Source: an uncultured Candidatus Saccharibacteria bacterium
Lineage (GTDB): Bacteria > Patescibacteriota > Doudnabacteria > UBA920
Direction: 5' to 3'
Assembly (NCBI GenBank): GCA_964561085.1
Contig: CAZLNP010000003.1
Location: 72,310-136,309 of the forward strand
Length of the DNA: 64,000 bases
Of this stretch, positions 2,300 to 53,623 are shown piece by piece. The notes below the pieces were generated by a model. It did not search any database and was not told where the DNA came from. It saw nothing but the letters and a program-made list of their open reading frames with translations. Made by a program: the position numbers and the translations under genes. The number at the start of each line of letters is the position of its first letter. Within the stretch, counting starts at the first letter, position 1.

Positions 2300-3529
2300 C
2301 TAAACTACTAAATAATTATTATCGCTAGCCTTTTGTTCAGCTATGCGGTTCATAATCTCTTCCAAGTCTTCATCACTAAAGAAGTCAATCGTAATTTTTC
2401 CCCCACGACCCTGGCGTTGAATTTTAACTTGAGTTTGCAACTTTCCTCTAAGCTCTGTTTCTAGCGCCATCAATTTTGGATCTGGTGTAGCTGCATCCAT
2501 TCTACGCTTCACTGTAATCTCACGAACCTTGGCTTCTACCTGACGCACGTTTAATCCTTGTTCTTGGATTGCTTCATACATCAAAATCATCTTCTCAATT
2601 TCACCTAAACCTAAAATCGCCCGAGCATGGCCTTCTGTAATTTTTCCTTCAATCACACCGCGCTGAATTTCTGCTGGTAAATTTAGAAGTCGTAAAGTAT
2701 TAGCTACTGCACTTCTAGACTTACCAACTTTCTTTGCTACCTGATCTTGAGTTAGATTGAATTCTTTTATCATACGCTCATACCCACGTGCTTCTTCGAT
2801 CGCATTCAAATCTTGACGTTGAGTATTTTCAATCAAAGCGACTTCCAATTTAGTCTGATCATGCAAACTACTTTTTACAATCGCTGGAATTTTAGTCAGC
2901 CCTGCAAGTTGAGAGGCACGAAAACGACGCTCCCCTACAACTATTTCGTAGCCGGTGGGAGTTTTTGTAACTACTAAAGGCTGGATAACACCGTGCTCTT
3001 TAATAGAGTCTGCCAATTCTTGCAAAGCCTCTGGCTTAAACTGTGTACGTGGCTGATACGGATTAGCAACAATTTGCGATATTTCTAATTCTTGGATTGA
3101 GCTATCTGCGTAAGAAACTTTTTCCGTTGGGGCTTCCACTGCAGGGACTTCTGCCTGGGTCTCATTCACAAATGATTCCTCATTAGCAACCACTGGCTCG
3201 TCATATGAAATTGGCGCCGCTATTACAGGCTCCACTGCTAAGGGTAAAGGTTCTTCGTCAGGAGTAGTATCAACAAAATGAATTTCTTCTACAGCAGGAG
3301 CTGAATTTTGAGCATCATTAAAATATGCTTGTGCAGGATCGAAAGATGGAGTTTCAACAATCGGCTCTTTAATCACAGGGGCTTGATATTGCTGAGCAGG
3401 GACAATTTCATCGAACTCTTCCACTGGTTCCTGGACAGGCTCCATGACAGGCTCAGGTTTCACAGGTGGCTGCCAAGGCTGGGACGGCGGTTGACGATGA
3501 GGTTGTTGATGAGGAACAATGCTGTCCAT
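2300..3529 (-). CDS. parB: ParB/Spo0J-family partition protein with ~165-aa N-terminal Pro/Glu/Val-rich disordered extension
   Basis: C-terminal half has ParB box GERRFRAS, then HTH (SRSAVANTLRLL); no parA adjacent. Confidence 0.75.
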   Translation of the reverse strand: MDSIVPHQQPHRQPPSQPWQPPVKPEPVMEPVQEPVEEFDEIVPAQQYQAPVIKEPIVETPSFDPAQAYFNDAQNSAPAVEEIHFVDTTPDEEPLPLAVEPVIAAPISYDEPVVANEESFVNETQAEVPAVEAPTEKVSYADSSIQELEISQIVANPYQPRTQFKPEALQELADSIKEHGVIQPLVVTKTPTGYEIVVGERRFRASQLAGLTKIPAIVKSSLHDQTKLEVALIENTQRQDLNAIEEARGYERMIKEFNLTQDQVAKKVGKSRSAVANTLRLLNLPAEIQRGVIEGKITEGHARAILGLGEIEKMILMYEAIQEQGLNVRQVEAKVREITVKRRMDAATPDPKLMALETELRGKLQTQVKIQRQGRGGKITIDFFSDEDLEEIMNRIAEQKASDNNYLVV

Positions 3530-3531
3530 AA

Positions 3532-4131
3532 TTAAGCTTTAAGGGGTTTTACAATATTTAAAAAATCACGGACATTTTTGGACAGACGGACATGGTATGT
3601 ATACTTGGAATTATATTTGGATTTCGGTTGAAAGTGATATATATTAGGATCGTATCCAAGCCATTTAATCATTTGGTAAACATCCGTTGCAAGATCTTTT
3701 ACTGTGTTAGTGAACATCACCATTGGATATCCACGATCAGTGTAAACTGAACCATCAGTTTCAATCAATCCCTTTAAGCAGGCTGTAATATATTCGTCTT
3801 TGATCCATATCCAATCAGGCACTTTTGCGTTCTGAATGTATTTGCTTCCTTGCCCTGCTTTCCACCCTAATATGGTTTCCCAGTAATTCGAATACGAAGA
3901 AATATCTATACAGTTACTAGGCCTCTTTATAATATCTATTTTGCTTTCCGGCAAAATATAATTGATAGCTGCTATTATCTCAGTAATTAAAAAAGTATAT
4001 TTAAGATCACATGAAACTCTGAATCGAACACATCTACTATTTGGGTTTGATAGATTTCCATCACCCAATCCAATCCCAACAAGATAAGCTAAAACTTCTC
4101 TGTTCCACCTAATTGAATTAGTGTAATACAT
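3532..4131 (-). CDS. LAGLIDADG-family homing endonuclease (double-motif)
   Basis: Two LAGLIDADG motifs: LVGIGLGDGNLS and KGLIETDGSV; start placed at internal Met (MYYTNS) because the longer ORF would overlap tRNA-Leu. Confidence 0.8.
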   Translation of the reverse strand: MYYTNSIRWNREVLAYLVGIGLGDGNLSNPNSRCVRFRVSCDLKYTFLITEIIAAINYILPESKIDIIKRPSNCIDISSYSNYWETILGWKAGQGSKYIQNAKVPDWIWIKDEYITACLKGLIETDGSVYTDRGYPMVMFTNTVKDLATDVYQMIKWLGYDPNIYHFQPKSKYNSKYTYHVRLSKNVRDFLNIVKPLKA

Positions 4132-4137
4132 TTTATT

Positions 4138-4223
4138 TGGTGCCGGTGGTGGGACTCGAACCCACACGCCCAGAGGGCAAAGGTTTTTGAAACCTTCTTG
4201 TATACCAATTTCAACACACCGGC
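4138..4223 (-). tRNA. tRNA-Leu (anticodon CAA), type II long variable arm, CCA encoded
   Basis: Reverse complement folds as cloverleaf: acceptor GCCGGTG/CACCGGC, anticodon loop TTCAAAA, long variable arm, T-loop GGTTCGAGTCC, 3' ACCA. Confidence 0.8.
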
Positions 4224-4807: not shown

Positions 4808-5617
4808 TTAGTTTCTTATTAAATAAATAATGACTATCACTGCTGCCAATGCAAATCTGTACCAAGCAAAAATAGCAAAAGACTTGTTTGCAATGTAACG
4901 TAGCATATATTTAATAGCAAGGAATCCAAAAATCATTGCTGAAAAGAATCCAACAATCACTGGGCCTAAATTATCTATTTGTGCAATGTCTGGAATTTTT
5001 AATACACCAGCTCCAAGAATTATCGGCACAGACATTAAAAAGCTAAACTTTGCCGCGGCTTCACGAGTAAGCCCTTGGGCTAGCCCGGCTGTTATTGTTG
5101 CACCGCTTCTTGAAATACCAGGAACGATTGCTGCTGCTTGAGCAAAACCAATTAGAATCGCATTACCCCAAGATGTGTCGTTTAAAGATTTAAGCTTATG
5201 ACCATATTTATCTGCAAGTAATAGAATAAACCCTACTACCGCTAAAGTTACAGCAATTAGAATTGGATTACGAAAAGCTGTTTCGACTTGATTTTCGAAA
5301 ATCTTGCCGATTACCGCCGCTGGGATTGTCGCAGCAATAATTAGCCATGAAAGTTTTTGATAAATATTTTCTTTGAAGTTTCTAGTACTCGGGAGCAGGG
5401 AGTGAAAAAAACCACGCGCTAAATTCCATATATCTTTTCTGAAATATGCGACCACCGCAATTAAGGTACCCCAGTGAAGCGCAATATCGAAAGCTAAACC
5501 TTGATCTGGCCAGTTAAAAAGATATGGCGTAATAATTAAATGAGCTGAAGAAGAGATTGGCAAAAATTCACCAAGCCCTTGAACTGCGCCTAATATAAAT
5601 GCTTGAAATAATTCCAT
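4808..5617 (-). CDS. uppP: Undecaprenyl-diphosphatase UppP/BacA
   Basis: 269 aa; N-terminal GxxQGLGEFLPISSSAHL signature of BacA/UppP. Confidence 0.85.
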   Translation of the reverse strand: MELFQAFILGAVQGLGEFLPISSSAHLIITPYLFNWPDQGLAFDIALHWGTLIAVVAYFRKDIWNLARGFFHSLLPSTRNFKENIYQKLSWLIIAATIPAAVIGKIFENQVETAFRNPILIAVTLAVVGFILLLADKYGHKLKSLNDTSWGNAILIGFAQAAAIVPGISRSGATITAGLAQGLTREAAAKFSFLMSVPIILGAGVLKIPDIAQIDNLGPVIVGFFSAMIFGFLAIKYMLRYIANKSFAIFAWYRFALAAVIVIIYLIRN

Positions 5618-5625
5618 TATAATTT

Positions 5626-6912
5626 TTATTCAATCCCCGGCACAGGAAAACCTAAAGAAAACTCTTTGACTTCCTGTTTAATTTTTTCGTGTAGGCCAGT
5701 GTCTTCAGGGTTTTTCAAAACTTGCACCATCCAATCAGCAACCTTTACCATATCTTCTTCTTTGGCACCGCGCGTTGTGATTGCAGGAGTTCCTAATCGA
5801 ATACCGCTCGGGTCCATCGGGCTACGAGTATCATCTGCTATCATATTCATATTTAAAGTAATTCCAACTGTATCTAACAACTCCTGAGCTTGTTTACCAG
5901 TAACATTCCATGATTTTACAACATCAACAAGAATTAAATGATTACTAGTGCCACCAGTAATTAAATGGCCGCCGCGTGCAATAAGTTCTTCCGCTAACTT
6001 TGAAGCGTTCTTGATTACTTGAGCCGAGTAATCTTGAAACTCGGGTCTAAGCGCTTCGCCAAAAGCCACTGCCTTTGCAGCAATGTTATTCATATGAGGT
6101 CCACCTTGAAGACCAGGGAAAACAGATTTATCAATTTTCTTGCCAAGTTCTTCAGCACGAGGTCCAGCGCACATAATCATTCCGCCGCGTGGACCACGCA
6201 AAGTTTTGTGAGTAGTGGTTGTAATAATATCGAAGCCATCATCAAAAGGATTGCGAAGCTGACCGCCAGCAATTAAACCAGCAATGTGCGCTGCATCCAT
6301 CATAGTAATTGCACCGACTTCATCAGCTATAGATTTCATCTTGGCGTAATCAATTTCTCTTGGGTACGCAGAAAACCCTGCGAGAATTAATTTTGGTTTT
6401 TCTCGCAAAGCAGTTTCACGCAGAGCATCGTAATCAATTTCACCAGTAGTAATATCTTTCATGCCATAGCGGACAAAGTTATACAACTTTGCCATGGCTG
6501 TAACAGGATGTCCGTGAGTTAAATGACCACCATGAGAAAGATCCATTCCAAGCACTGTATCTCCTGGTTGAAGCAAAGCAAAATACACCGCCACATTTGC
6601 AGGTGCACCACTTAACGGTTGTACATTAGCGTAGTCAGCTTTAAAAAGCTGTTTTGCGCGATCTATCGCTAATTGCTCAATTACATCGGTGTTTTCCTGG
6701 CCACCGTAATAACGCTTCCCAGGATAGCCTTCAGAATATTTATTAGTAAAAACTGTCCCCAAAGCTTCCAAAACTGCTGCGGAAACGTAATTTTCTGATG
6801 GAATCATCTCGATTCCCTCTTTCTGACGAAGCATTTCGTTGCGTAAACTGTCGTAAACGGTTTTATCTGACTTTTCTAGATTTTCGTAATTCATATATTT
6901 TAATCTTAACAA
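5626..6912 (-). CDS. glyA: Serine hydroxymethyltransferase
   Basis: 428 aa; LIPSENY, PLP-lysine region TTTTHKTLRGPRGG. Confidence 0.92.
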   Translation of the reverse strand: MLRLKYMNYENLEKSDKTVYDSLRNEMLRQKEGIEMIPSENYVSAAVLEALGTVFTNKYSEGYPGKRYYGGQENTDVIEQLAIDRAKQLFKADYANVQPLSGAPANVAVYFALLQPGDTVLGMDLSHGGHLTHGHPVTAMAKLYNFVRYGMKDITTGEIDYDALRETALREKPKLILAGFSAYPREIDYAKMKSIADEVGAITMMDAAHIAGLIAGGQLRNPFDDGFDIITTTTHKTLRGPRGGMIMCAGPRAEELGKKIDKSVFPGLQGGPHMNNIAAKAVAFGEALRPEFQDYSAQVIKNASKLAEELIARGGHLITGGTSNHLILVDVVKSWNVTGKQAQELLDTVGITLNMNMIADDTRSPMDPSGIRLGTPAITTRGAKEEDMVKVADWMVQVLKNPEDTGLHEKIKQEVKEFSLGFPVPGIE

Positions 6913-29326: not shown

Positions 29327-30349
29327 GTGCATAAAGCCATGCCCGAAACCAAAAGCCAAACAAAAACTACCAAAATCCAACGGACTGCGATTGAAAAAAA
29401 TATCCAGGACTTTTTGGAATACTGCGAAATTGAAAAGAATAAAAGCCTTTTAACTATTCGCAACTACGCCCACTATCTCGCCCGCTTTGCCGCCTTCACC
29501 CGCTCTCAAGGCGTTACTCGCCCAGAAGACATTGTACTAGATACCGTCAGAGCTTTTCGTCTATATTTAAACCGTTATGCCGACGAAAACACCGGCAAAG
29601 GATTAAAACCAGTCACCCAAAACTATCATGTGATTGCGGTGAGGGCCTTTCTAAAATATTTAGCACGCCGCGATATTAATTCCCTCTCTGCAGAAAAAAT
29701 AGAATTAGCGAAAAATCCAGCTCGCGAAGTAGAAATTATGGACAATGATGAAGTAGCGCGCATCAAAAAAGCAGTTGCTTCAGAAGACAATGAAGTAGCG
29801 CAGTTGCGAGACGCTGCTATCTTAGAACTTCTCTTCTCCAGCGGAGTTCGTATTTCTGAACTCGTGCAATTAAAACAGAGTCAGCTTAACTTTGAGCGCG
29901 GTGAATTTACTGTACGCGGCAAAGGTGATAAGCTTCGTTTGGTTTTTATGTCGGACGAGGCAGCGAAAATGATTAAGGCATACTTAAAAAAACGGGATGA
30001 TAACTCGCCAGCTCTGTTTGTTAGTCATAGTACTGTGGGCAACACTGTGACCAAGCAAATGGAATCAATTGGCAAAAAATCTGATCAACACAACGCTGCA
30101 GGCCTCACCGCTAGAAGCGTACAGCGTTTAGTAAAAAAGTACGCGGGCCTTGCTGGAATAATGCACAAGGTCACTCCCCACACCTTCCGTCACTCATTTG
30201 CAACAGACTTACTTCAAAATGGGGCAGACATTCGCAGCGTACAAACCCTATTAGGCCACGCCTCTATTACTACAACTCAAATCTACACCCACGTGACTAA
30301 CGATAGACTGCGTGAAGTGCATAAAAAATTCCATAATAATAAAGGTTAA
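29327..30349 (+). CDS. Tyrosine recombinase, XerC/XerD-like (phage-integrase family)
   Basis: N-terminal SAM-like core-binding domain; catalytic R...HxxR...Y (TPHTFRHSFATDLL...GHASITTTQIYTHV). Confidence 0.8.
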   Translation: MHKAMPETKSQTKTTKIQRTAIEKNIQDFLEYCEIEKNKSLLTIRNYAHYLARFAAFTRSQGVTRPEDIVLDTVRAFRLYLNRYADENTGKGLKPVTQNYHVIAVRAFLKYLARRDINSLSAEKIELAKNPAREVEIMDNDEVARIKKAVASEDNEVAQLRDAAILELLFSSGVRISELVQLKQSQLNFERGEFTVRGKGDKLRLVFMSDEAAKMIKAYLKKRDDNSPALFVSHSTVGNTVTKQMESIGKKSDQHNAAGLTARSVQRLVKKYAGLAGIMHKVTPHTFRHSFATDLLQNGADIRSVQTLLGHASITTTQIYTHVTNDRLREVHKKFHNNKG

Positions 30350-32517: not shown

Positions 32518-32529
32518 GAAAACACTTAT

Positions 32530-32550
32530 ACGCCACATGGCGTTTTTTGT
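32530..32550 (+). terminator. Hairpin + T-run between the two tRNA genes
   Basis: ACGCCA-ca-TGGCGT followed by T6. Confidence 0.5.
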
Positions 32551-32566
32551 TATACTATATACATCA

Positions 32567-44506: not shown

Positions 44507-44998
44507 ATGCCTAAAGTTAACTGTAAAATTTGCAATTCTCCATTTTATGCCAAACCAAGACATTTAAAAATTGGTTGTGGAAAGTATTGTTCAAAAAAAT
44601 GCCAAAATACTTCTCAAAGAACTGGGTTTTGGACAGAATGCAATAACTGCGGCAAGTCAATATGGAAAACTCCCAGAGATGTTAGAGATTCAAAAAGTGG
44701 AAAATTCTTTTGCAGTAAAAGTTGCCAGACAGTTTGGAGAAACAAGCATTATAGCGAAACCAAACATCCTATGTGGAAAAATGGCATTAACACATACCGT
44801 AACATATTACTTAGAAGTAAGGTTCCTGTGATGTGTTTAAAATGTAAATTGAAAGATAAAAGAATTCTAATTGTTCACCATCTTGACAAAAATAGAACAA
44901 ATAATTCTTTGGGCAATTTAGTTTGGTTATGTGCAAATTGTCATATGTTAATTCATGCTGATAATAAAGAAATGAAAAGTTTTTTAAAGAATATATAA
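44507..44998 (+). CDS. HNH homing-type endonuclease with N-terminal paired zinc ribbons
   Basis: C-terminal HHLDKNRTNN...NLVWLCANCHMLIH HNH motif; duplicated CxxC...YAKP..GKYCSKxCQ N-terminal modules. Confidence 0.8.
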   Translation: MPKVNCKICNSPFYAKPRHLKIGCGKYCSKKCQNTSQRTGFWTECNNCGKSIWKTPRDVRDSKSGKFFCSKSCQTVWRNKHYSETKHPMWKNGINTYRNILLRSKVPVMCLKCKLKDKRILIVHHLDKNRTNNSLGNLVWLCANCHMLIHADNKEMKSFLKNI

Positions 44999-45005
44999 AT
45001 ATTAT

Positions 45006-45080
45006 GGTGGCTGTGGTGTAGTGGTAACACAATTCTCTGTGGCAGAATTATCGGGGGTTCGATTCCCCTCAGTCACCCCA
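45006..45080 (+). tRNA. tRNA-His (anticodon GTG) with encoded G-1 and CCA
   Basis: G-1 + GTGGCTG acceptor pairing with CAGTCAC, discriminator C73; anticodon stem ATTCT/AGAAT, loop CTGTGGC. Confidence 0.85.
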
Positions 45081-45231
45081 TTAAAAATAACGCTTGTTTA
45101 AAGCGTTATTTTTTGTTACCCTTAACAGGAATTGAACTGTGACCAAAAACGTGAAGTATAATTTATAAAATAATAAAGGTTCAATTTAAAATATATTTGT
45201 ATATAATTTTTAATAATTAAAACTTTCCACT

Positions 45232-45801
45232 ATGCAAAACGAATTGGAAGCTAAATTTCTATCAATTGATAAGGAAGAAGTTAGAGTCAAGCTAACTAGT
45301 GCTGGGTACACTCTCTCGACGCCTGAGTATACCATGCGAAGAAAAACTTTTGACTTCTCAAAAGTAGATCCTGGAAAAAATAAATGGGGTCGTGTTAGAC
45401 AAGAATCTGACAAAACAACAATGACTATCAAAGAAGTCAGAGGTGAAGGTGTTAATGATACTTTTGAAGTAGAGCTAGTTGTTAATGATTTTGATATTGC
45501 AGCCAACTTCTTCGAAGCATGTAATATCCACGCAAAAGCCTTTCAAGAAAATATGCGTGAGGTATGGAAAAAAGATAATGTCGAGGTAACCATTGATACC
45601 TGGCCAGGATTAAAGCCATTTATAGAAATTGAAGGTCCTACCGAAGAAAGCCTAAAAGAAGCTAGTGCGGAATTGGAGTTTGATTATGCAATAGCATCAT
45701 TTGGAAGCATCGATATGATTTATGAAAAAGAACTTGGCATCCCTGCTTCAGAAATAATTAAATTGCCAGAAATTACATTCGCGTCAGTACCAACTAAATA
45801 A
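45232..45801 (+). CDS. CYTH-domain protein (CyaB-like triphosphate tunnel metalloenzyme)
   Basis: N-terminal ELEAKF (ExExK) signature; 189 aa beta-barrel-like alternating pattern. Confidence 0.7.
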   Translation: MQNELEAKFLSIDKEEVRVKLTSAGYTLSTPEYTMRRKTFDFSKVDPGKNKWGRVRQESDKTTMTIKEVRGEGVNDTFEVELVVNDFDIAANFFEACNIHAKAFQENMREVWKKDNVEVTIDTWPGLKPFIEIEGPTEESLKEASAELEFDYAIASFGSIDMIYEKELGIPASEIIKLPEITFASVPTK

Positions 45802-45813
45802 TTACCAAAATGA

Positions 45814-45842
45814 AAAGCCGTGGAATTTCTTCTACGGCTTTT
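45814..45842. terminator. Bidirectional terminator between CYTH gene and radical SAM operon
   Basis: AAAGCCGT-12 nt loop-ACGGCTTT with flanking A/T runs. Confidence 0.55.
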
Positions 45843-46845
45843 ATCTTTTAAGTTGAACTAAAGTTGGTTTGATCGGCGGGTATGTGTACTCACCAGGTTC
45901 TTCCATGCACCACCCTTCAGATTGCCCAGGGGTCCTGCAGTTAAAATTACAGCGAGGTACAACCGTCAAGCGAAGCGATGTCTTGGCAAGCAAGTTATCG
46001 ATTTCGATTTCTCCGATCTTGCTTTTTATAGCAGCCTTGAATTGCGCATCGTCGTCATCAAATTCGGGGACTGAGAATCCTATGTCCCTTCTTAGATAGC
46101 AAAAATACATTTCAAGTTTCGGATCAACACGTGCGTAATCACCAAACTTTTCTTCGCAGACAAGTTTGTGATCACAGGAATTACAAGGCTCAACAGATCT
46201 ATCCAACTTATCTCCCAGCTTCACTTCAACCATGCCACCGCCAGAAAGATGAAACCGTAAGCGTTTTCTTCCTAAGTCTTTCTTCACCCGTTGAATGAGA
46301 GAAGTCTTAGAGAGCACTTCCGATTTGATCACTGGTCGCCAGTCCTGATATTGAGACTGATAATTTGAGTCGCTACTTGGAGTCCAAAGCAAAGTGAATA
46401 GTTTCAATCTGCTCTTATAGGTATTTAAGAGAGATAACTGCTCGGGAATGTCTGAGGTAAAACCTTTTAACAATACTCGATTGAAATCAACCTTGATACC
46501 TAAATCCAAAGCCTCGGTAACTCCTGAGATAAACTTTTGGTAATCTCCATAACCACCTGAAATCTCTTTAAAGATTAGTGGGTCTGTAGAATGCCAACTC
46601 GTTCGAATCAGGGATAACCCAGCCGTCTGTAGCTTTTTCGCATAAGCTTTAAGCAATTGCCCGTTTGTGGTCATCGAGGTTATAAAACCCCGATCGACAA
46701 GGGCTTTCACAACATCGTCAATATGATAATTGCCGTCTCGCCATAAAAGTGGTTCTAACGCACCGATCTCGACATTAGGGTTACCCCCAATACTCAACCA
46801 GTTATCAGCCACTTTCATTATATTTTCAAACGAAAGTGGTTTCAT
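45841..46845 (-). CDS. MoaA-like radical SAM protein, apparently circularly permuted (Cys-motif strand at C-terminus)
   Basis: N-terminal part aligns to MoaA from the GGEPLL element onward (GALEPLL, TNGQLL, SWHS); CX2C...C auxiliary-cluster-like region CNSCDHKLVC...RVDPKLEMYFC; C-terminal LRLTVVPRCNFNCRTPGQSEGWCMEEPGE resembles the MoaA N-terminal [21 protein letters not shown]. Confidence 0.6.
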   Translation of the reverse strand: MKPLSFENIMKVADNWLSIGGNPNVEIGALEPLLWRDGNYHIDDVVKALVDRGFITSMTTNGQLLKAYAKKLQTAGLSLIRTSWHSTDPLIFKEISGGYGDYQKFISGVTEALDLGIKVDFNRVLLKGFTSDIPEQLSLLNTYKSRLKLFTLLWTPSSDSNYQSQYQDWRPVIKSEVLSKTSLIQRVKKDLGRKRLRFHLSGGGMVEVKLGDKLDRSVEPCNSCDHKLVCEEKFGDYARVDPKLEMYFCYLRRDIGFSVPEFDDDDAQFKAAIKSKIGEIEIDNLLAKTSLRLTVVPRCNFNCRTPGQSEGWCMEEPGEYTYPPIKPTLVQLKR

Positions 46846-47423
46846 GCGTTTACCCTCCCAGCAATATGCTTTTTGATCAACTCAACAGTTTCTAATGCCG
46901 TCACAACACCCGTGTCAATGTAGATCAAATTAAACGAAAGAAAAACTTCGTTAACTTGATCCAAAAACGGACTATTATTTTCGAGGTTGGCATCAGGAAT
47001 GTTTCGTTTACGTGCTACGATTCGCTTGTCTCGAGTTTCTGAATCGCAGTTTAGATGAAACGCATAATCAGGTAGCAGTAGATGAGTATCAGAATGAATC
47101 AACTTCACTCTTTCATCTAATACATAATGATATGCTGCCGTTGTTGCTACGTAACGATCGGCTACAACTGGTCCTTGTTTCAAAAGATCCGTAATATGCT
47201 GGGTGTCATACTGCACAGCCATCATATAAAAACAATACCTTTCCAAAGGGCTTGCTCTCAGATCAATCTCTTTCCGTAATTCCGCGAACGCACCCGATGG
47301 TGATTTATAATATTGAAATCCCTGCTCAGCCAACAATAAAGCGGCTGTAGTTTTTCCAACACCATCTACGCCATCGAGACTTATAAATACATTTTTTTGC
47401 ATAAAGCCTCCCAGCTCATTCAA
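46842..47423 (-). CDS. tmk: Thymidylate kinase-like P-loop nucleotide kinase
   Basis: ISLDGVDGVGKTT P-loop and VVADRYVATTAAYHY (DRY motif); ATGA overlap with downstream radical SAM gene. Confidence 0.65.
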   Translation of the reverse strand: MNELGGFMQKNVFISLDGVDGVGKTTAALLLAEQGFQYYKSPSGAFAELRKEIDLRASPLERYCFYMMAVQYDTQHITDLLKQGPVVADRYVATTAAYHYVLDERVKLIHSDTHLLLPDYAFHLNCDSETRDKRIVARKRNIPDANLENNSPFLDQVNEVFLSFNLIYIDTGVVTALETVELIKKHIAGRVNA

Positions 47424-47904
47424 TGGATAAAATCAGAAGTTCTCTTTTGGAGTTCTTCAATCTTACCGTAACCTCATCATCTTCATGCTTACCGATTAAA
47501 GCACTTGATATTGGGGTGCCCAATGAAATAACCGTTATAGTTTTTCCATCATCTTCGTGTTCAGTTCCTCCGCCCGCTGGCAAAAGGAAATAATAAAGCC
47601 TTTCTCCTGAATTACAATCTTCCAGCTTGATTAACGCATAGAGTGAGCCATGCTCAATCTTAGGTGGATTGTTTCTCAAGACTTCCAAGGTTCCAAGTTG
47701 TTGCCGAAGTTCTGACAAATTCTTTTCAAAAGCACCGGCTAAATACTGGGCTTCTTCTTTGAACGTGTCATATCGGGACTGCATGGCTCCTTTATGAAAC
47801 CTAGATTCCTTTTCAGCTGTTTTGCGACCGGTTTCGGCTGTTTCAATTGCTGAACGAGTGGTTGCGATTATTTCTTCCAAAATCCGCAATTTTAGTTCTT
47901 GCAT
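47416..47904 (-). CDS. greA: GreA/GreB-family transcript cleavage factor
   Basis: N-terminal coiled-coil + C-terminal FKBP-like VISLGTPISSALIGKHEDDEVTV; 8-nt overlap with tmk-like gene. Confidence 0.7.
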   Translation of the reverse strand: MQELKLRILEEIIATTRSAIETAETGRKTAEKESRFHKGAMQSRYDTFKEEAQYLAGAFEKNLSELRQQLGTLEVLRNNPPKIEHGSLYALIKLEDCNSGERLYYFLLPAGGGTEHEDDGKTITVISLGTPISSALIGKHEDDEVTVRLKNSKRELLILSIE

Positions 47905-48116
47905 AAATTCTCCTTATATATGTAAAAGTAAGCCACTTAAATGTATAAATGACTTACAATTATGGGATATTTTTGTCGAATTGTCAACCGAATACAGAAT
48001 CTGTATTTTACAGTATCATTTCAGGAAAGAACCCATCCCTCTTCCCATATACCTCCCCTTGTAACTTAAATTGACAATGATATAAATACTTCTGTTTCTC
48101 TCGCCACAGTTGCCAC

Positions 48117-48173
48117 GTCTTCCACTATGCGACCCTACAAACAACATCTGTTAATCGCAGGTGTTTTTTGTTA
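48117..48173 (+). repeat. Conserved leader/terminator element copy E1
   Basis: TCCACTATGCGACCC...CATCTG-ttaatcg-CAGGTG + T6, 11 nt before ridA ATG. Confidence 0.6.
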
Positions 48174-48183
48174 AACTTATTTT

Positions 48184-48603
48184 ATGAACGACACTCACAT
48201 CAACTCTTCCAGAGCACCTAAACCCTTGGGCTCATATCCTCATGCAAGGCGCGTTGGCAATCTTTTATTCCTATCTGGTATCGGCCCTCGTGAAATTGAT
48301 TCAAAAAATATTCCTGGAGTACAGCTTAATGACGCTGGAGATATAATATCTTATGATATTGAAACTCAATGTCGATCTGTATTTAAAAATGTTAAGTTAG
48401 TCCTCGAAGATGCAGGATCTTCGTGGGACCAAATAATTGATGTCACTGTGTTTCTAACAAACATGGAAGATGATTTTGAAGTTTACAATCAAGTCTATAA
48501 TGAGTACTTTTCAAAGAATCAGCCATGTCGGACAACTATCGAAGTTAATAAATTACCAACGCCAATAGCTATTGAATTAAAGGTCATTGCAACAGTAAAC
48601 TAA
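48184..48603 (+). CDS. ridA: RidA/YjgF-family reactive-intermediate deaminase
   Basis: 139 aa; RVGNLLFLSGIGP...TTIEV...ELKVIA signature. Confidence 0.85.
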   Translation: MNDTHINSSRAPKPLGSYPHARRVGNLLFLSGIGPREIDSKNIPGVQLNDAGDIISYDIETQCRSVFKNVKLVLEDAGSSWDQIIDVTVFLTNMEDDFEVYNQVYNEYFSKNQPCRTTIEVNKLPTPIAIELKVIATVN

Positions 48604-48621
48604 TAGCACGGTGGTGCAGAC

Positions 48622-48678
48622 ATCCTCCACTATGCGACCCCAGCAAAAAGCATCTCGTAATCCGAGGTGTTTTTTGTT
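48622..48678 (+). repeat. Conserved leader/terminator element copy E2
   Basis: TCCACTATGCGACCC...CATCTCG-taatc-CGAGGTG + T6; near-identical to E1. Confidence 0.6.
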
Positions 48679-48689
48679 ATGCTAATTGT

Positions 48690-49154
48690 ATGATATTAAA
48701 ATTTTCTAACTTAGATACGCTAAGAAATCAGAAAACTGTCTATACAGCCGGCTCTTTTGATTTATTCCATCATGGCCACGTTAAGTATCTAAGAGCGATT
48801 AGAGAAAAATATCCGAACCATAAAGTAGTTCTTGGTTTACTTCCTGATAAAAGAATTGCCGGCAAAAAAGGGAGCTCACGACCAATTATAAAAGAAAAAG
48901 ATAGAATTGCGGTGATCGATTCAATAAAGTACGTGGACTATGTTTTTATCTGCCCTATTTACAAACATGCGGAAGATGCGACATTTATAATTTTAGAGAA
49001 GCTTAAACCAAAATATGTGGTGTTCCCTCAAAAGAAGTATCTTAAACTAAAACATGAATTTGAAAAGACGGGCTCAAAAATAGTCATTTTGAATAGGCAG
49101 TTAAACTCCGAGTCAACCTCTAACATAATTAAGAGGATTCAAAATATCAAATAG
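48690..49154 (+). CDS. Cytidylyltransferase-family nucleotidyltransferase (TagD/RfaE-domain-II-like)
   Basis: GSFDLFHHGHVKYL = G-x-FD-x-x-H-x-GH nucleotidyltransferase motif; 154 aa. Confidence 0.65.
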   Translation: MILKFSNLDTLRNQKTVYTAGSFDLFHHGHVKYLRAIREKYPNHKVVLGLLPDKRIAGKKGSSRPIIKEKDRIAVIDSIKYVDYVFICPIYKHAEDATFIILEKLKPKYVVFPQKKYLKLKHEFEKTGSKIVILNRQLNSESTSNIIKRIQNIK

Positions 49155-49179
49155 CGATGACCTTGCCTTAGTCCTCACT

Positions 49180-49232
49180 TCTTCCGCAATGTGACCCCCA
49201 AAAAACACTAGCATCCGCTAGTGTTTTTTGCT
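49180..49232 (+). repeat. Conserved leader/terminator element copy E3 (diverged)
   Basis: TTCCGCAATGTGACCCCC...CACTAGC-atcc-GCTAGTG + T6. Confidence 0.55.
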
Positions 49233-49260
49233 ACGCTTTAAGTAACTAAAGAAAAACTTA

Positions 49261-49410
49261 TGAAAATCAAAGTTGAACACCACACTTTTCCTGGAGCGCT
49301 TTGGCTAATTGGCTGGCTGTTTACAATTGGCTTTTTAGACCTTCACTTTTGGAAAGGTGTATTGGCTATCATTATCTGGCCATACTACCTAGGCATTTTC
49401 TTCCGCTAAA
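49261..49410 (+). CDS. Small hydrophobic protein (49 aa, two predicted TM; not in ORF track)
   Basis: ATG 49261, MKIKVEHHTFPGALWLIGWLFTIGFLDLHFWKGVLAIIIWPYYLGIFFR, stop 49408-49410. Confidence 0.3.
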
Positions 49411-50245
49411 TTTTTGGTAAAGCTAAAATCCAGAACAAAATTAGACCTAGAATGGCATTAATTGCTGGGAACCACCAGTAAATGGTTTTAATTTTGTGTA
49501 GGTTGATGTAAGTGTAGATCGTTGCGATTGGATACAACAGCACTAACCAAACTAAAATACTGGCGTTGAAGTTTTGGATAACTAGCACGCTAGATATAAT
49601 CCATAATACAAAACAAACTACCAGAGAAAGCTTGTGTCCTAGCACCACGGCTGTAGTAGACAGATTAGCTTTGGCATCACTTTCAATATCTGGGACTGCG
49701 GAATAGATGTGCATGCTAGCAGTCCACGCCCAAGCAGCTAACATTGCCCACACCGGTGGAACATCACCAGTTATAAAACTGTAAGCTAGGAATCCAATCA
49801 CTGCATAATGAACATTGGAAGCCGCGTCGATAACAGGCTTAGCTTTAAAGCGAAACGGATACGCGCTATAACATCCAGCTAAAGCAAGGAACAAAATCCA
49901 TAGCCACATTGTAGTTGAATTTGGCGTAAAGAATGCCAACACAATACCAAGAACAAGCGATGCGACAACCCATATAGTTAGGGCTCTGCGTTCTAACATT
50001 CTTAGACGATGTTCTTTATCGTCTTTTTTAGCGTTGAACTGATCTGTATCATCGTCGAACAAATCATTGATGCCGTAAATATAGATGTTTGCAAAGAAAA
50101 TAAAATAGACTAAATAAACTAACAACAGCGGATTAATTAAGTCAGTTAAAGTTTGCACTCCAGCCACTGCCCCAACTAAAAATGTGCCAGCTGCATAAAG
50201 CCAAAACCGAGGTCTTGAAATTTTGATTAAAGTTTTAAGGTTCAT
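49406..50245 (-). CDS. UbiA-family prenyltransferase (lycopene elongase/cyclase-like, in carotenoid operon)
   Basis: 279 aa, ~8 TM; Asp-rich motif GINDLFDDDTDQFN (NDxxDxxxD). Confidence 0.55.
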   Translation of the reverse strand: MNLKTLIKISRPRFWLYAAGTFLVGAVAGVQTLTDLINPLLLVYLVYFIFFANIYIYGINDLFDDDTDQFNAKKDDKEHRLRMLERRALTIWVVASLVLGIVLAFFTPNSTTMWLWILFLALAGCYSAYPFRFKAKPVIDAASNVHYAVIGFLAYSFITGDVPPVWAMLAAWAWTASMHIYSAVPDIESDAKANLSTTAVVLGHKLSLVVCFVLWIISSVLVIQNFNASILVWLVLLYPIATIYTYINLHKIKTIYWWFPAINAILGLILFWILALPKI

Positions 50246-50254
50246 TTGTTTAGA

Positions 50255-51313
50255 TTATTTTTCTCGTACGGCTAAATAATTTATCAAGTCTTCCATTACT
50301 ACTAATTGATTTTTATCAAAAGGTAGTTTCTTAAGTAGAGTTAATACGTTCTTCTGTTGAGCTTGTAATTCCCTCTCAGCTAACTCAGGAATACGAGCCT
50401 CTTTCATTTTTGAAATTACAAAAGCTTGTTGAGACTTAGTCATCACATTGTGAGAATTAAACAGCGTAGAAATTTTCTTTGCGTCTGATTTACTAACTTT
50501 CTTAAGAAGTCGGAAGTATAGCCAAGTTTTTTTGCGCTCACGAATGTCACCGCCAACTGACTTTCCTGTTTTTACTGTATCGCCAAATACCCCTAAGTAG
50601 TCGTCACGGAGTTGAAATATAATTCCTAAAGATTTTGCCAACTGTTGAACTTTAACTTCCATGCTTTTGGTGTACTTCCCTGCTAGAATAAGTCCTGCTA
50701 AAATTGGCAGTCCAAACGTATATCGGCCAGTCTTTTGTTCATAAATCCTCAGGCAATCTTTTTCACTTGAAGCACTCATAGTACCAGTATTAAGATCATC
50801 CATTTGTCCGAGACCAAGCAAACCCATTTCTAAGCTAAACAGCTCCACTAGTTTTGCTAGCCCTTTGTTTGTTTTAACTTTTCCAAATTCACTCATGGCC
50901 ATAAAGTAAGCAAGGATTCCGACACAGCTTGCCATACCTTCTCCATAATGAACACTCTCGGCTTTACTAGGAAGCTTGCTTAAAGCGGTGTACTGGGCAT
51001 GAATTGTAGGTTTCCCGCGGCGCAAAAGATCACGATCCATAATATCATCATGGACTAAAATACCGGAATGCATTAGCTCTAAAGCCGCACCAATTTTAAT
51101 AGCATCAGATTGAGCCTGCTTCGATTTATTCCCAGTTGCCAATACTACTAAAAGTCCACGAATCATTTTTCCAGAGACTGTAAAATTTTCTAAACGATTT
51201 AAGGCGTCGTTTGACCAAGGATATTCAGACTTTGCATATTGCTTCTGAAGCCTTATAATCTCAGAGATTTCTTTCTGAATCAGACTTTTTTTTGATATAA
51301 AAAACTTGTTCAT
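50255..51313 (-). CDS. Polyprenyl diphosphate synthase (FPP/GGPP synthase type)
   Basis: First Asp-rich motif LVHDDIMDRD (DDxxD), second FQLRDDYLGVFGD. Confidence 0.8.
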   Translation of the reverse strand: MNKFFISKKSLIQKEISEIIRLQKQYAKSEYPWSNDALNRLENFTVSGKMIRGLLVVLATGNKSKQAQSDAIKIGAALELMHSGILVHDDIMDRDLLRRGKPTIHAQYTALSKLPSKAESVHYGEGMASCVGILAYFMAMSEFGKVKTNKGLAKLVELFSLEMGLLGLGQMDDLNTGTMSASSEKDCLRIYEQKTGRYTFGLPILAGLILAGKYTKSMEVKVQQLAKSLGIIFQLRDDYLGVFGDTVKTGKSVGGDIRERKKTWLYFRLLKKVSKSDAKKISTLFNSHNVMTKSQQAFVISKMKEARIPELAERELQAQQKNVLTLLKKLPFDKNQLVVMEDLINYLAVREK

Positions 51314-52155
51314 GTAAATATAAGTTGCTTAATGGCTGTTGTCGCTATCTGTACCTTTGATGGTATTACTTTTCTTTCAAAAATAACTTGTGGGTTTTTA
51401 GAAATTTCTTCAATCGTATCGTCAAACAAATTTAGTGCTATCTTAATGGGTACCAAATAACGTGATGGAATAAAATGGAAACCGCTCTTAGCTTGCTCCC
51501 GCCACTGTTCGTAAATTTTAATTTGAGCATGAATGAATTCATTAAATTGTTCTGGCTTAGCAGTAGCCTCTGCTTTACTGACTTCAAGTAACCCAAACTT
51601 TCTAAACTCTTCTTCTGGCAAATAAATTCTCCCCAAAGAAATGTCATCTGCAACATCACGAATCATATTCATGTACTGAAAAGCTTTTCCTAAAGCCTGG
51701 GATGCTGGAAAACTAGCTTCATCAAGTTTCATAATCTTTGCCATCATCAAACCAATTACTTCAGCCGACCCATGAATGTAATGTTCAGTTTCCTCCAAAG
51801 TTGCGTAAGTAGTTTTAACTAGATCATCTTCCATTGAACCAAAAAAAGATTCAATCCATTTTTGATCAAAATTATATTCTTTTTGAAGCTTCACAAAGCT
51901 CTGGACCACTTCCGTATTTTTTTCTGAACTAAGTGATTGAGTCGCTTCCCCGTTTAGTGTGGCATAATATTCGGTTTTCAGTTGAAAATATTCATCTTTC
52001 TGAGGAGGGACGCAATCAACGAAGTCATCAAAAACTCTAACGAATGCGTATAAATCAAATACAGCCTTCTTTTCTGCAGAAGGAAAAAATAGTGACGCAG
52101 CGAAGAACGTTGTGCTGCCATTTTTAAAAATTTCGTAACTAACTGATTTGCTCAT
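51310..52155 (-). CDS. Phytoene/dehydrosqualene synthase family (CrtB/CrtM-like)
   Basis: YAFVRVFDDFVD and MIRDVADD Asp-rich motifs of squalene/phytoene synthases; 4-nt overlap with downstream gene. Confidence 0.75.
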   Translation of the reverse strand: MSKSVSYEIFKNGSTTFFAASLFFPSAEKKAVFDLYAFVRVFDDFVDCVPPQKDEYFQLKTEYYATLNGEATQSLSSEKNTEVVQSFVKLQKEYNFDQKWIESFFGSMEDDLVKTTYATLEETEHYIHGSAEVIGLMMAKIMKLDEASFPASQALGKAFQYMNMIRDVADDISLGRIYLPEEEFRKFGLLEVSKAEATAKPEQFNEFIHAQIKIYEQWREQAKSGFHFIPSRYLVPIKIALNLFDDTIEEISKNPQVIFERKVIPSKVQIATTAIKQLIFT

Positions 52156-53623
52156 TATCTTTTGTAATATTATCGCGAGTTAGTTGGCCCGAGATTAAAG
52201 TCATGGGCACACCAATTCCTGGTTGAGTAAATTGACCTGAATAGTAAAGGTTTTTAACTTTTTTGCTTTTCATTCGAGGGCGCATCATGGCTGTTTGCCA
52301 TAAAGTGTGACTCAGCCCTAAAGCGGTTCCCTTAAAAGCATTATAATCCTTTGCGAAATCTTCTCCGGTGAAAATTCTTTTTACTTCAATGTTCGGTGTA
52401 ATACTTTCCCCTGTCTCTTCCTCAAAGTGAGAAATAATTTTTTGTGCAAACTCCTCGCGGAACTCTGGAGTCTCTGGTAAGTCACTTGCTATTGGTACTA
52501 GGACAAATAAGTTTTCTTTGCCTTCTGGTGCTGTTGTAGGATCGGTCTGCGATGGCGCACATACATAGTAAGACGGTTCATCAGGCCAAGAAGGCTTGTC
52601 GAAAATAGCATTAAAATGCTTGGTCCAGTCATTGCTTAGAACTAGATTATGATGGCTCAAAGAATTTAACTTTTTATTTAGCCCCAAATAGATAATAAAC
52701 GCAGAAGGTGCCACCGTTCGGTTATTCCAATATCTGTTCGAGTAACTTTGAGAGGACTTTGGTAACAAGCTTGTTTCAATATGATGATAGTCCCCGTTCC
52801 CGACTACTACATCTGCTTCGAACTCATCTGTCTCAGTACTTACTGAAGTGGCAACGCCATTAACGACATTAATTTTTGTGACTGGAGTATTGAATATAAA
52901 TTTTGCGCCATAGCTTTCAGCGAGTTTTTGCATTGCCACGGCCACCGCGTTAAATCCACCTTCCGGATACCATACTCCCAAATTAAAGTCAGCGTGATTA
53001 ATTACTGAATAAAGCGCTGGGGTGTTGCTTGGAGCACCACCAAGAAAAACCATACTGTACTGCAAAATTTTTCGCAAGCGTTCACTCTTAAAAAATCTTT
53101 TTGTAAAAGCGTCTAGGTTTTCAAACACATGAAGCTTGCGGCCCTCTGTTAACATGCGCTTATTAAAGAAGTCAAAAATTGATGTAAAATTTTTGTACAA
53201 GAATTGCTTCATCGAGACATCGTACTGATATTTAGCTTGCTCTAAATACTCTACTAATTTCTCTCCAGCTCCAGGCTCAAGAGACTCAAATAACGCAATA
53301 TTCTTCTGCAAATCTGAGCTAATGTCTAATTTATCTCCAGGACCAAAAAATATTCTGTAAGATGGATCTAAACGAATTAATTTGTACAAGTCTTCAGGCT
53401 TTTTCCCGAAGTTAGCAAAGTAAGTTTCAAAGGCATCCGGCATTAAATACCACGATGGACCCATGTCAAACGAAAAGCCGGCCTCTCGCCAGATGCGAGC
53501 ACGACCGCCTACCATTTCATTTTTTTCTATAATTGTCACTTTATGGCCATCTCTAGCCAAAAGCGCTGCCGCAGCCAAACCACCAAACCCGGCGCCTATA
53601 ACTACGATCTTTTTGCTTTCCAT
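52139..53623 (-). CDS. Phytoene desaturase family (CrtI/CrtN-like FAD oxidoreductase)
   Basis: N-terminal dinucleotide fold VVIGAGFGGLAAAALLARDGHKVTIIEKN; 494 aa; 17-nt overlap with synthase gene. Confidence 0.75.
   Translation of the reverse strand: MESKKIVVIGAGFGGLAAAALLARDGHKVTIIEKNEMVGGRARIWREAGFSFDMGPSWYLMPDAFETYFANFGKKPEDLYKLIRLDPSYRIFFGPGDKLDISSDLQKNIALFESLEPGAGEKLVEYLEQAKYQYDVSMKQFLYKNFTSIFDFFNKRMLTEGRKLHVFENLDAFTKRFFKSERLRKILQYSMVFLGGAPSNTPALYSVINHADFNLGVWYPEGGFNAVAVAMQKLAESYGAKFIFNTPVTKINVVNGVATSVSTETDEFEADVVVGNGDYHHIETSLLPKSSQSYSNRYWNNRTVAPSAFIIYLGLNKKLNSLSHHNLVLSNDWTKHFNAIFDKPSWPDEPSYYVCAPSQTDPTTAPEGKENLFVLVPIASDLPETPEFREEFAQKIISHFEEETGESITPNIEVKRIFTGEDFAKDYNAFKGTALGLSHTLWQTAMMRPRMKSKKVKNLYYSGQFTQPGIGVPMTLISGQLTRDNITKDNEQIS

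Follow-up and report, generated by a model that had tools for sequence, protein, structure and literature searches.

The genomic islands at the ssrA gene of Dehalococcoides are arranged in tandem, and their boundaries carry a 20-bp repeat of the ssrA 3' end. Before each repeat lies a conserved motif of 15 bp without alignment to ssrA, which marks the insertion point according to the authors (PMC3146451). The general principle of islands residing in tRNA genes (tDNA islands) has been described in Islander (PMC4383910). The Dehalococcoides islands are the closest published case that was found for the locus described here, which is part of a stretch of 64,000 nucleotides (the window) from an uncultured Candidatus Saccharibacteria bacterium (GenBank assembly GCA_964561085.1, contig CAZLNP010000003.1, positions 72,310 to 136,309 of the forward strand; GTDB lineage Patescibacteriota, Doudnabacteria, UBA920). 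The locus comprises a tRNA-His(GTG) gene and, behind it on the same strand, three copies (E1, E2 and E3) of a composite element. The anatomy of these elements, their confinement to a single locus, their co-orientation with the tRNA gene, the hypervariable cargo that lies between conserved flanks, and a cargo gene shared between distantly labelled genomes are directly observed, and we lean towards regarding E1 to E3 as junction (att-like) repeats in an array of small gene cassettes anchored at tRNA-His, in other words of tandem mini-islands in a genome of the candidate phyla radiation (CPR). The genomes of CPR bacteria, or Patescibacteria, are minimal, and the ways in which these organisms acquire and exchange genes are poorly understood; no description of a tRNA-His cassette array was found in literature searches.

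The array shares with the ssrA islands of Dehalococcoides an intact RNA gene at one end, co-oriented 3'-end repeats at the boundaries, an extra motif 5' of the repeats, the tandem arrangement and variable cargo between conserved flanks. Two to five co-oriented elements are present per locus; their block shows no alignment with the tRNA, and the cargo differs between syntenic genomes. This combination of a single locus, a fixed orientation, a tRNA 3'-end repeat, an additional motif and variable cargo matches tandem integration at a tRNA gene. In contrast to the Dehalococcoides islands, which measure roughly 10 kb or more, the units described here have a size of 0.4-3 kb and mostly consist of single genes, they contain no integration module, their repeat of the tRNA proper is confined to 6-9 nt, and their junctions supply a terminator and a leaderless promoter and are shared across very divergent Patescibacteria. 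The tDNA islands of Islander are defined by an intact tRNA gene at one end, a displaced direct repeat of its 3' segment at the other and an integrase gene inside, beside the tRNA. In the present case, a co-oriented tRNA-His gene is located upstream but shares only the sequence (C/G)ACCCCA of the tRNA proper with the elements, along with the trailer in three of ten genomes, and no integrase was detected in the arrays by Pfam scans.

The array also resembles integron arrays, as its cassettes are compact, carry single genes of miscellaneous function and mostly point the same way, with the oldest or resident gene at the far end, and the element resembles an attC site, as a 60-80-bp site with a hairpin and a terminal GTT closely follows each cassette and often contains the stop codon. 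Sites of the attC type conserve structure, not sequence. The conserved part of the element, by contrast, is a linear sequence of 30 nt that lacks the R''/L''-L'/R' inverted-repeat organisation: its 5' end reads yAGTTGCC without an AAC inverse core, the sole inverted repeat is the terminator stem, and of the attC consensus (RYYYAAC at the 5' end, GTTRRRY at the 3' end) only the 3' part is matched by E1 (GTTAAAC), not by E2 (GTTATGC) or E3 (GCTACGC). Unlike integrons, the locus contains no intI gene and no attI/Pc platform by the first cassette, the neighbours of the array being an HNH-family nuclease gene and the tRNA-His gene, and each cassette has its own promoter. Additionally, the array is similar to cis-mobilizable elements (CIMEs), which are att-flanked segments without recombination genes of their own that lie in tandem at a tRNA gene and are presumed to be mobilised in trans, but the present segments are far smaller and no cognate integrase was found beside the arrays. 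For CIMEs and for accretion at tRNA genes, the cognate integrase of an integrative and conjugative element or of an integrative and mobilizable element is reportedly known. The array is best explained as a combination of tandem tDNA islands with an integron-like compactness, devoid of a linked integrase and conserved across very divergent Patescibacteria.

Architecture of the elements E1, E2 and E3

A preliminary description of this DNA had placed the three copies at window positions 48117-48173 (E1), 48622-48678 (E2) and 49180-49232 (E3), and inspection of the sequence, shuffling and profile searches all bore this out. The motif TCCACTATGCGACCC is identical in E1 and E2 and differs at three positions in E3, and its match count was reached by none of 100 shuffles of the window. 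A profile of the three copies yielded strong matches in the window with E1 to E3 only (E values of 1e-16 to 1e-19), the other matches being weak and corresponding to terminators after the tRNA-Arg and tRNA-His genes. In each element an A-rich spacer is followed by a hairpin and by T6. The preliminary description had given an element of ~55 bp with a hairpin of 6-7 bp that ends 11-35 nt before a start codon. The core is as described, but conservation extends ~13 nt further in the 5' direction (yAGT-nnnn-ACRTC...) and in the 3' direction through GTTAnnnT; the stems become longer when the flanking A/U pairs are counted; and the elements, which are indeed close to the ATG, end 10 (E1), 11 (E2) and 27 nt (E3) before it when measured with the original limits. 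The identification of the two downstream genes as ridA and a cytidylyltransferase-like gene agrees with the respective Pfam matches.

The revised limits of the elements on the plus strand are 48104-48178 (E1), 48609-48684 (E2) and 49166-49238 (E3). The composite element consists of a conserved block of ~30 nt that ends with ACCCCA, an A-rich spacer with a G+C hairpin and T6, and the sequence TGnTAnnnT. In E1, the block covers positions 48108-48137 (AGTTGCCACGTCTTCCACTATGCGACCCTA), the hairpin 48143-48165 and the T6 run 48164-48169, and the extended -10 box TGTTAAACT at 48169-48177 is separated by 6 nt from the ATG at 48184. E2 begins 6 nt behind the ridA stop codon and contains the block at 48613-48642 (GGTGCAGACATCCTCCACTATGCGACCCCA), the hairpin at 48650-48670, T6 at 48670-48675 and the extended -10 box TGTTATGCT at 48675-48683, again followed by 6 nt and the ATG at 48690. 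E3 is a diverged copy with the block at 49170-49200 (AGTCCTCACTTCTTCCGCAATGTGACCCCCA), a hairpin at about 49204-49226, T6 at 49224-49229 and the box TGCTACGCT at 49229-49237, the ATG being located 22 nt further on.

The 3' half of the element fits the consensus patterns of two known signals. In E1 to E3, a G+C-rich stem-loop is directly followed by a T run, as is typical of intrinsic terminators, and E1 was listed by a terminator scan as well. The minimum free energies of the whole elements range from -17 to -27 kcal/mol with z-scores from -3.4 to -7.7, and transcription is predicted to terminate at the hairpins. Behind the T run, the sequences TG-T-TAAACT in E1 and TG-T-TATGCT in E2 lie exactly 6 nt upstream of the ATG and represent an extended -10 arrangement (TGnTAnnnT-N6-ATG) without a Shine-Dalgarno site, whereas E3 has the extended -10 box at a gap of 22 nt. 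The complete arrangement was detected in 13 of 33 elements. Moreover, 12 of the 59 genes of the window have TAnnnT at a distance of exactly 6 nt from the ATG, which is a sharp peak compared with an average of about two genes at other gaps and a background of 2.1% per position, and a Shine-Dalgarno-like site is present at just 15 of the 59 starts of open reading frames (ORFs). Extended -10 boxes with leaderless starts would explain the missing Shine-Dalgarno sites. Since the -10 box is located 3' of the hairpin and the T run, the hairpin would lie outside the transcript of the downstream gene; judged from this layout, the downstream mRNAs are most likely leaderless and devoid of the element, with predicted transcription start sites at the ATG codons.

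The combination of terminator and leaderless promoter accounts for the 3' half alone, not for the block or the locus specificity, and it recurs at ordinary intergenic sites. Hairpins of the family ATCGCC...GGCGAT, combined with TTTTTTGnTAnnnT-N6-ATG and lacking the block, occur at positions 2975-3020 of locus L135, 5734-5774 of L140 and 32518-32560 of the window. These sites act as an ordinary intergenic terminator/promoter module, and the hairpin sequences are surprisingly shared across genomes.

Distribution of the arrays and their association with tRNA-His

When one genome per species was scanned with TCYTCCRCWATGYGACCC (596 Gb), at least 119 loci were obtained, with about 280 chance matches expected. 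Among the matches listed, most were single and located in high-GC genomes, and multi-copy loci with the full architecture of block, A-rich spacer, hairpin and TTTTTTGTTA were those named L026, L036, L054, L083 and L090, which are labelled Candidatus Saccharibacteria, and L031, L046 and L062, which are labelled Doudnabacteria. A metagenome scan contributed the loci L121-L130. The same element is present in at least 15 other Patescibacteria loci carrying one of these two labels, and profile searches revealed diverged copies beside the exact ones, forming arrays of two to five elements on one strand per locus. The view of the element as a small mobile intergenic repeat came closest to the data among the options that the preliminary description had offered, but the copies are not dispersed: one 8-kb stretch per genome was matched in the genome scan, among the matches listed, and one cluster is present in the window. 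Dispersed repeats such as repetitive extragenic palindromes, bacterial interspersed mosaic elements or miniature inverted-repeat transposable elements are scattered in both orientations, whereas the present copies form a single cluster on the same strand behind tRNA-His. The element consensus reads yAGT-nnnn-ACRTCYTCCACTATGC(G/C)ACCCCA-RCAA. The block is nearly invariant across differently labelled phyla and in genomes with flanking genes of ~70% DNA identity, whereas the spacer and the hairpin vary freely; subtypes of block, spacer and hairpin are reshuffled among the copies.

Two deviating sequences were noted during these searches. In L123 (reverse strand, around 1440-1650), a G+C-rich insert of ~130 nt with strong hairpins separates the block from the terminator and may be a small inserted element or a structured RNA. 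A block-like 37-mer at positions 1067-1103 of L122, which is also present in L127, lies on a contig with a GC content of 0.60 between ORFs for a possible methyltransferase and a possible glycosyltransferase (guessed from the translations), with neither a terminator nor a tRNA-His gene within 1 kb; either it matches by chance or the block has a distant relative beyond the low-GC CPR.

The tRNA-His(GTG) gene of the window was identified by ARAGORN and Rfam at positions 45007..45080 of the plus strand and ends with ...CAGTCACCCCA. According to ARAGORN, a tRNA-His(GTG) gene is located upstream and on the same strand as the elements not only in the window but also in L121, L125, L126, L083, L090, L031 and L046, and the same holds for L132, L139 and L140, which are anchored by an HNH gene. 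These tRNA genes end with ...CACCCCA, followed by GCAAAA or CAAAAA, a hairpin and TTTTTTGTTA, which are the letters found after the block as well, and the elements end with (C/G)ACCCCA and RCAAAA as at the tRNA-His 3' end. The trailer of the window (45081..45118, plus strand) consists of an A-rich stretch, the hairpin AATAACGCTT/AAGCGTTATT, T6 and GTTA; its fold has a free energy of -13.7 kcal/mol (z -6.0), and its 3' half is weakly matched by the element profile. In L083, L090 and L125 (three of ten genomes), the trailer of the genome's own tRNA is 83-95% identical to the trailer and terminator of an element, compared with a 95th percentile of 77% in cross-genome comparisons. Upstream of ACCCCA, the block has no measurable likeness to the tRNA body: alignments of 14 blocks with the 3' part of their own tRNA-His were no better than those of shuffled sequences, one copy excepted. 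A pseudo-tRNA in the block was rejected, as neither ARAGORN nor Rfam detected a tRNA and the alignments remained at shuffle level.

The orientation of the elements follows the tRNA and not the genes. Based on crude ORF calls of at least 60 amino acids (aa), 35 elements have a scorable upstream gene and 33 a scorable downstream gene; the upstream gene is located on the opposite strand in nine of the 35 cases, E1 included, and the downstream gene in 13 of the 33. For the 26 elements with a co-oriented upstream gene, the stop codon lies -4 to about 20 nt from the element and sometimes inside it.

Upstream of the tRNA-His gene, the window contains an HNH-family nuclease gene (44507..44998, plus strand; weak Pfam matches to HNH_3/HNH) that ends 8 nt before the tRNA gene. 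An HNH gene directly followed by tRNA-His was observed in all seven homologue families that were looked up (L132-L149, diverse Patescibacteria), with an overlap of gene and tRNA in L148, but it precedes just one of the six to seven arrays that were found by pattern. Since the HNH gene is always located at tRNA-His and is missing upstream of most arrays found independently, its linkage is with the tRNA gene rather than with the arrays; its candidacy as cassette enzyme was dismissed for the same reason, and it is probably context rather than part of the cassette mechanism. The protein has N-terminal Cys-rich repeats, and the gene may be a free-standing homing-endonuclease-like gene tied to tRNA-His.

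The variability of the cargo became apparent from the comparison of syntenic genomes. The sequences L054/L132 share ~70% DNA identity with the window on both flanks of the array, comprising the helicase gene, the HNH gene and tRNA-His upstream and the genes for a 49-aa ORF, murB, murA, Wzy and AI-2E downstream, whereas between tRNA-His and the 49-aa ORF they contain four elements with wholly different cargo (a NUDIX gene and three genes without a Pfam match). L090 and L126 have one flank each in common with the window. In GC content, the variable region of the window does not stand out from its flanks. In other arrays, the cargo includes genes for HIT, peptidase S51, SET, PNP/UDP phosphorylase, NUDIX and two HAD hydrolases, as well as P-loop kinases, a SpoU methylase and DUF6879. 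The gene for the 255-aa PNP/UDP phosphorylase is 89% DNA-identical over 794 bp between L083, which is labelled Saccharibacteria (reverse strand, oriented positions 5382-6175), and L062, which is labelled Doudnabacteria (oriented positions 5740-6533). It has its own TATAAT-N6-ATG promoter and is followed by an element in L083, whereas in L062 it is preceded by an element and terminal in the array. An identity of this degree between distantly labelled genomes points to horizontal transfer of the cassette or, at a minimum, to a pool of cassettes that these genomes share. Homologues of the cytidylyltransferase-like gene on other contigs (55-75% identity) are not flanked by the element; a gene-specific cis element was consequently rejected.

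Proposed integration behind tRNA-His and rival explanations

According to the reading that we favour, integration would be site-specific, taking place at or just 5' of (C/G)ACCCCA. The unstructured, non-tRNA block would be the att-site arm contributed by the element, and ACCCCA with the trailer would be the short direct repeat that integration at the 3' end of tRNA-His generates. The tRNA-His gene would serve as the anchor (attB side), in the position that is held by the block in later units, and successive integrations through a putative recombinase acting in trans would produce the order tRNA-His - cargo - repeat - cargo - repeat ... - resident gene. Within such an array, the intrinsic terminator of each repeat would close the upstream unit, and transcription from the extended -10 promoter would begin at the ATG of the gene that follows, giving a leaderless mRNA. 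E1 would represent the distal boundary of a four-gene insertion of 3 kb and not a leader of ridA. The preliminary description had correctly pointed out that no plus-strand gene is located upstream of E1, its 5' neighbour being the start of a minus-strand GreA-like gene, and an island boundary would explain this position. A more far-reaching form of the proposal, offered tentatively and regarded as doubtful, is that the CPR possess an integron-like system of their own, in which the 3' end of tRNA-His is a docking site that captures circular one-gene cassettes, each with the ~30-bp block, a terminator and a leaderless promoter, by means of a putative recombinase encoded elsewhere or on a mobile element.

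Several results weigh against integration. No integrase or recombinase gene was detected by Pfam in or beside the examined arrays (window genes between 43 and 61 kb and 20 cargo ORFs elsewhere), and the sole tyrosine recombinase gene of the window, which is XerC/D/A-like and located at 29327-30349, lies 15 kb from the array. Neither an excised circle nor an empty site in a close strain was found, and one other contig of the source genome, the only one found in a search for strain polymorphism, has an identical arrangement. Likewise, no attP of a phage or plasmid was found in two out of a set of eight viral-contig scans, both of which gave chance matches only. The block has no obvious dyad symmetry by eye, unlike the usual core sites of tyrosine recombinases. 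The identity with the tRNA proper is as short as indicated above, the trailers differ in seven of ten genomes, the window included, and the hairpin/promoter half is generic and is found at intergenic sites that lack the block as well. Moreover, the apparent crossover point is inconsistent, since homology begins at the T run in the case of the 49-aa ORF, where the hairpins differ, and 25 nt before the ATG in the case of the phosphorylase gene, where it ends at the stop codon. Integration at a Xer/dif module, as known from integrative mobile elements exploiting Xer (IMEX) and from pdif sites, fits poorly as well. Such sites measure 28 bp and have two inverted arms of 11 bp around a 6-bp centre, and the chromosomal dif site lies at the replication terminus; besides the lack of a dyad, the match of the block to the XerD arm consensus is poor by eye, and the locus is near the origin, as deduced from its proximity to parB in the window and to dnaA in L142. 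A dif/Xer-like site, DnaA boxes, a DNA-uptake sequence and a mimic of the anti-Shine-Dalgarno sequence were dropped as interpretations of the block in view of the missing dyad, the single locus and the absence of a downstream Shine-Dalgarno site.

The non-uniform break-points of homology leave room for the elements being mere homology anchors, that is, sequences of 70-85 bp that allow RecA to exchange cargo or add new cargo once DNA has been taken up, as in a 'minimal mobile element', with arrays growing by duplication of the intergenic module. This would be in accordance with the reshuffled subtypes, with a generic terminator/promoter half and with the lack of a recombinase linked to any array, but it leaves unexplained why the block is found only behind tRNA-His, in one orientation and together with the tRNA's own ACCCCA and trailer, and why it is so strongly conserved across distantly labelled Patescibacteria; we consider it unlikely. 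The signals shared with tRNA-His could alternatively belong to an RNA 3'-end element, in which block, ACCCCA and trailer end the upstream mRNA, mimic pre-tRNA-His and are trimmed or stabilised by the same nuclease or protein. Elements starting 0-20 nt after a co-oriented stop codon in 26 of 35 cases, the succession of ACCCCA, trailer and terminator as in tRNA-His and an HNH stop codon that abuts the tRNA in like manner would suit such a function. On the other hand, nine of the 35 elements follow an opposite-strand gene, the block has no likeness to the tRNA body, a general device for mRNA 3' ends is not expected at one locus per genome, and an acceptor-like or other helix is not supported: RNAalifold found no consensus pairs in 26 copies, and the helices 8-12/26-30, 11-15/31-35 and 6-10/30-34 were no better than column shuffles and had no covariation support. 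This explanation is accordingly rated as decidedly unlikely.

The preliminary description had judged the copies to be paralogous rather than convergent and to be more than plain terminators, and both judgements hold. Ordinary paralogous terminators, with the block as a neutral passenger of local duplications that has no function of its own, would explain the very stable, terminator-like hairpin and T6 and the similar structures after tRNA-Arg and tRNA-His, but not a block that is nearly invariant beside a freely varying spacer and hairpin, and terminators of the same generic family exist without the block, so that this view is highly improbable. Barely tenable is the 5' leader or attenuator that had been put forward initially, namely a riboswitch-like RNA that would terminate transcription prematurely and thereby control ridA, the cytidylyltransferase-like gene and the 49-aa ORF. 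It was suggested by the hairpin and T run just 5' of three consecutive genes and by E1 having no upstream plus-strand gene to terminate. The -10 box between T run and ATG, at the typical leaderless spacing of the genome, however places the element outside the downstream transcript, the downstream genes are functionally unrelated across the copies, and the cytidylyltransferase homologues elsewhere do without the element. Tests for a structured RNA were negative: searches of the window and 15 loci against Rfam at gathering and permissive thresholds gave tRNAs and noise only, no covariation was seen, and the minimum-free-energy folds of E1 to E3 contain no antiterminator pairing between block and terminator. 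Coding functions of the block were rejected as well, a leader peptide from the block ATG because E3 reads ATG TGA and the spacer lengths are out of frame, and a small minus-strand ORF because the frames are inconsistent among the copies.

If integration behind tRNA-His is true, the conserved, locus-specific array would offer a concrete path, open to testing, by which genes enter and leave genomes labelled Saccharibacteria or Doudnabacteria. The cargo is rich in small enzymes that handle nucleotides and metabolites (RidA, NUDIX, HAD, HIT, kinases and phosphorylase), and under the integron-like form of the proposal these episymbiotic bacteria would have access to a shared pool of small accessory enzymes. 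The element would also constitute a compact natural insulated expression unit with terminator and leaderless promoter in about 40 bp. The 30-nt block is a simple probe for arrays in metagenomes and for the search for a recombinase, and with regard to genome annotation, such hairpins should not be labelled attenuators or riboswitch candidates.

Genes of the array and its surroundings

The segment between the tRNA-His trailer and E1 (45119..48103), with E1 as its distal bound, is absent from the syntenic genome L132/L054. According to Pfam, it contains a CYTH gene on the plus strand and radical-SAM, thymidylate-kinase-like and GreA-like genes on the minus strand. The CYTH gene is the first gene after tRNA-His, and its start codon is covered by a copy of the 11-nt core of the block, TTCCACTATGC, at 45225-45235 without the remaining element. 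About 0.03 exact matches to this core are expected in the window, and the copy could be a recombination scar or due to chance.

The first cassette gene behind E1 encodes a protein of the RidA/L-PSP family (48184..48603, plus strand; PF01042, E value 1.7e-28). It has no Shine-Dalgarno site and shows the TAnnnT-N6-ATG layout, which suggests a leaderless mRNA. The second encodes the cytidylyltransferase-like protein (48690..49154, plus strand; PF01467, E value 2e-14), and its mRNA is likewise predicted to be leaderless. The array ends with the 49-aa hydrophobic membrane ORF (49260..49409, plus strand), which is not followed by an element and was not on record in a database look-up. The same ORF is terminal in L054/L132, with a nucleotide identity of 79% that starts at the T run/GTTA. 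Owing to this terminal position in the window and in L054 and to the lack of an element behind it, the ORF is probably the resident gene that was originally located next to tRNA-His.

Between the 49-aa ORF and murB, a carotenoid-type gene cluster is located on the minus strand of the window (49406-53623), encoding a UbiA prenyltransferase, a polyprenyl synthetase, a phytoene/squalene synthase and a CrtI-like desaturase. Carotenoid genes are unexpected for a CPR genome. The cluster is absent from the syntenic contig L132, and its borders are devoid of the element. Additionally, a LAGLIDADG_3 homing-endonuclease-like gene (3532-4167, minus strand) abuts or overlaps the tRNA-Leu(CAA) gene (4138-4223, minus strand) and represents the second nuclease gene of the window that is attached to a tRNA gene.

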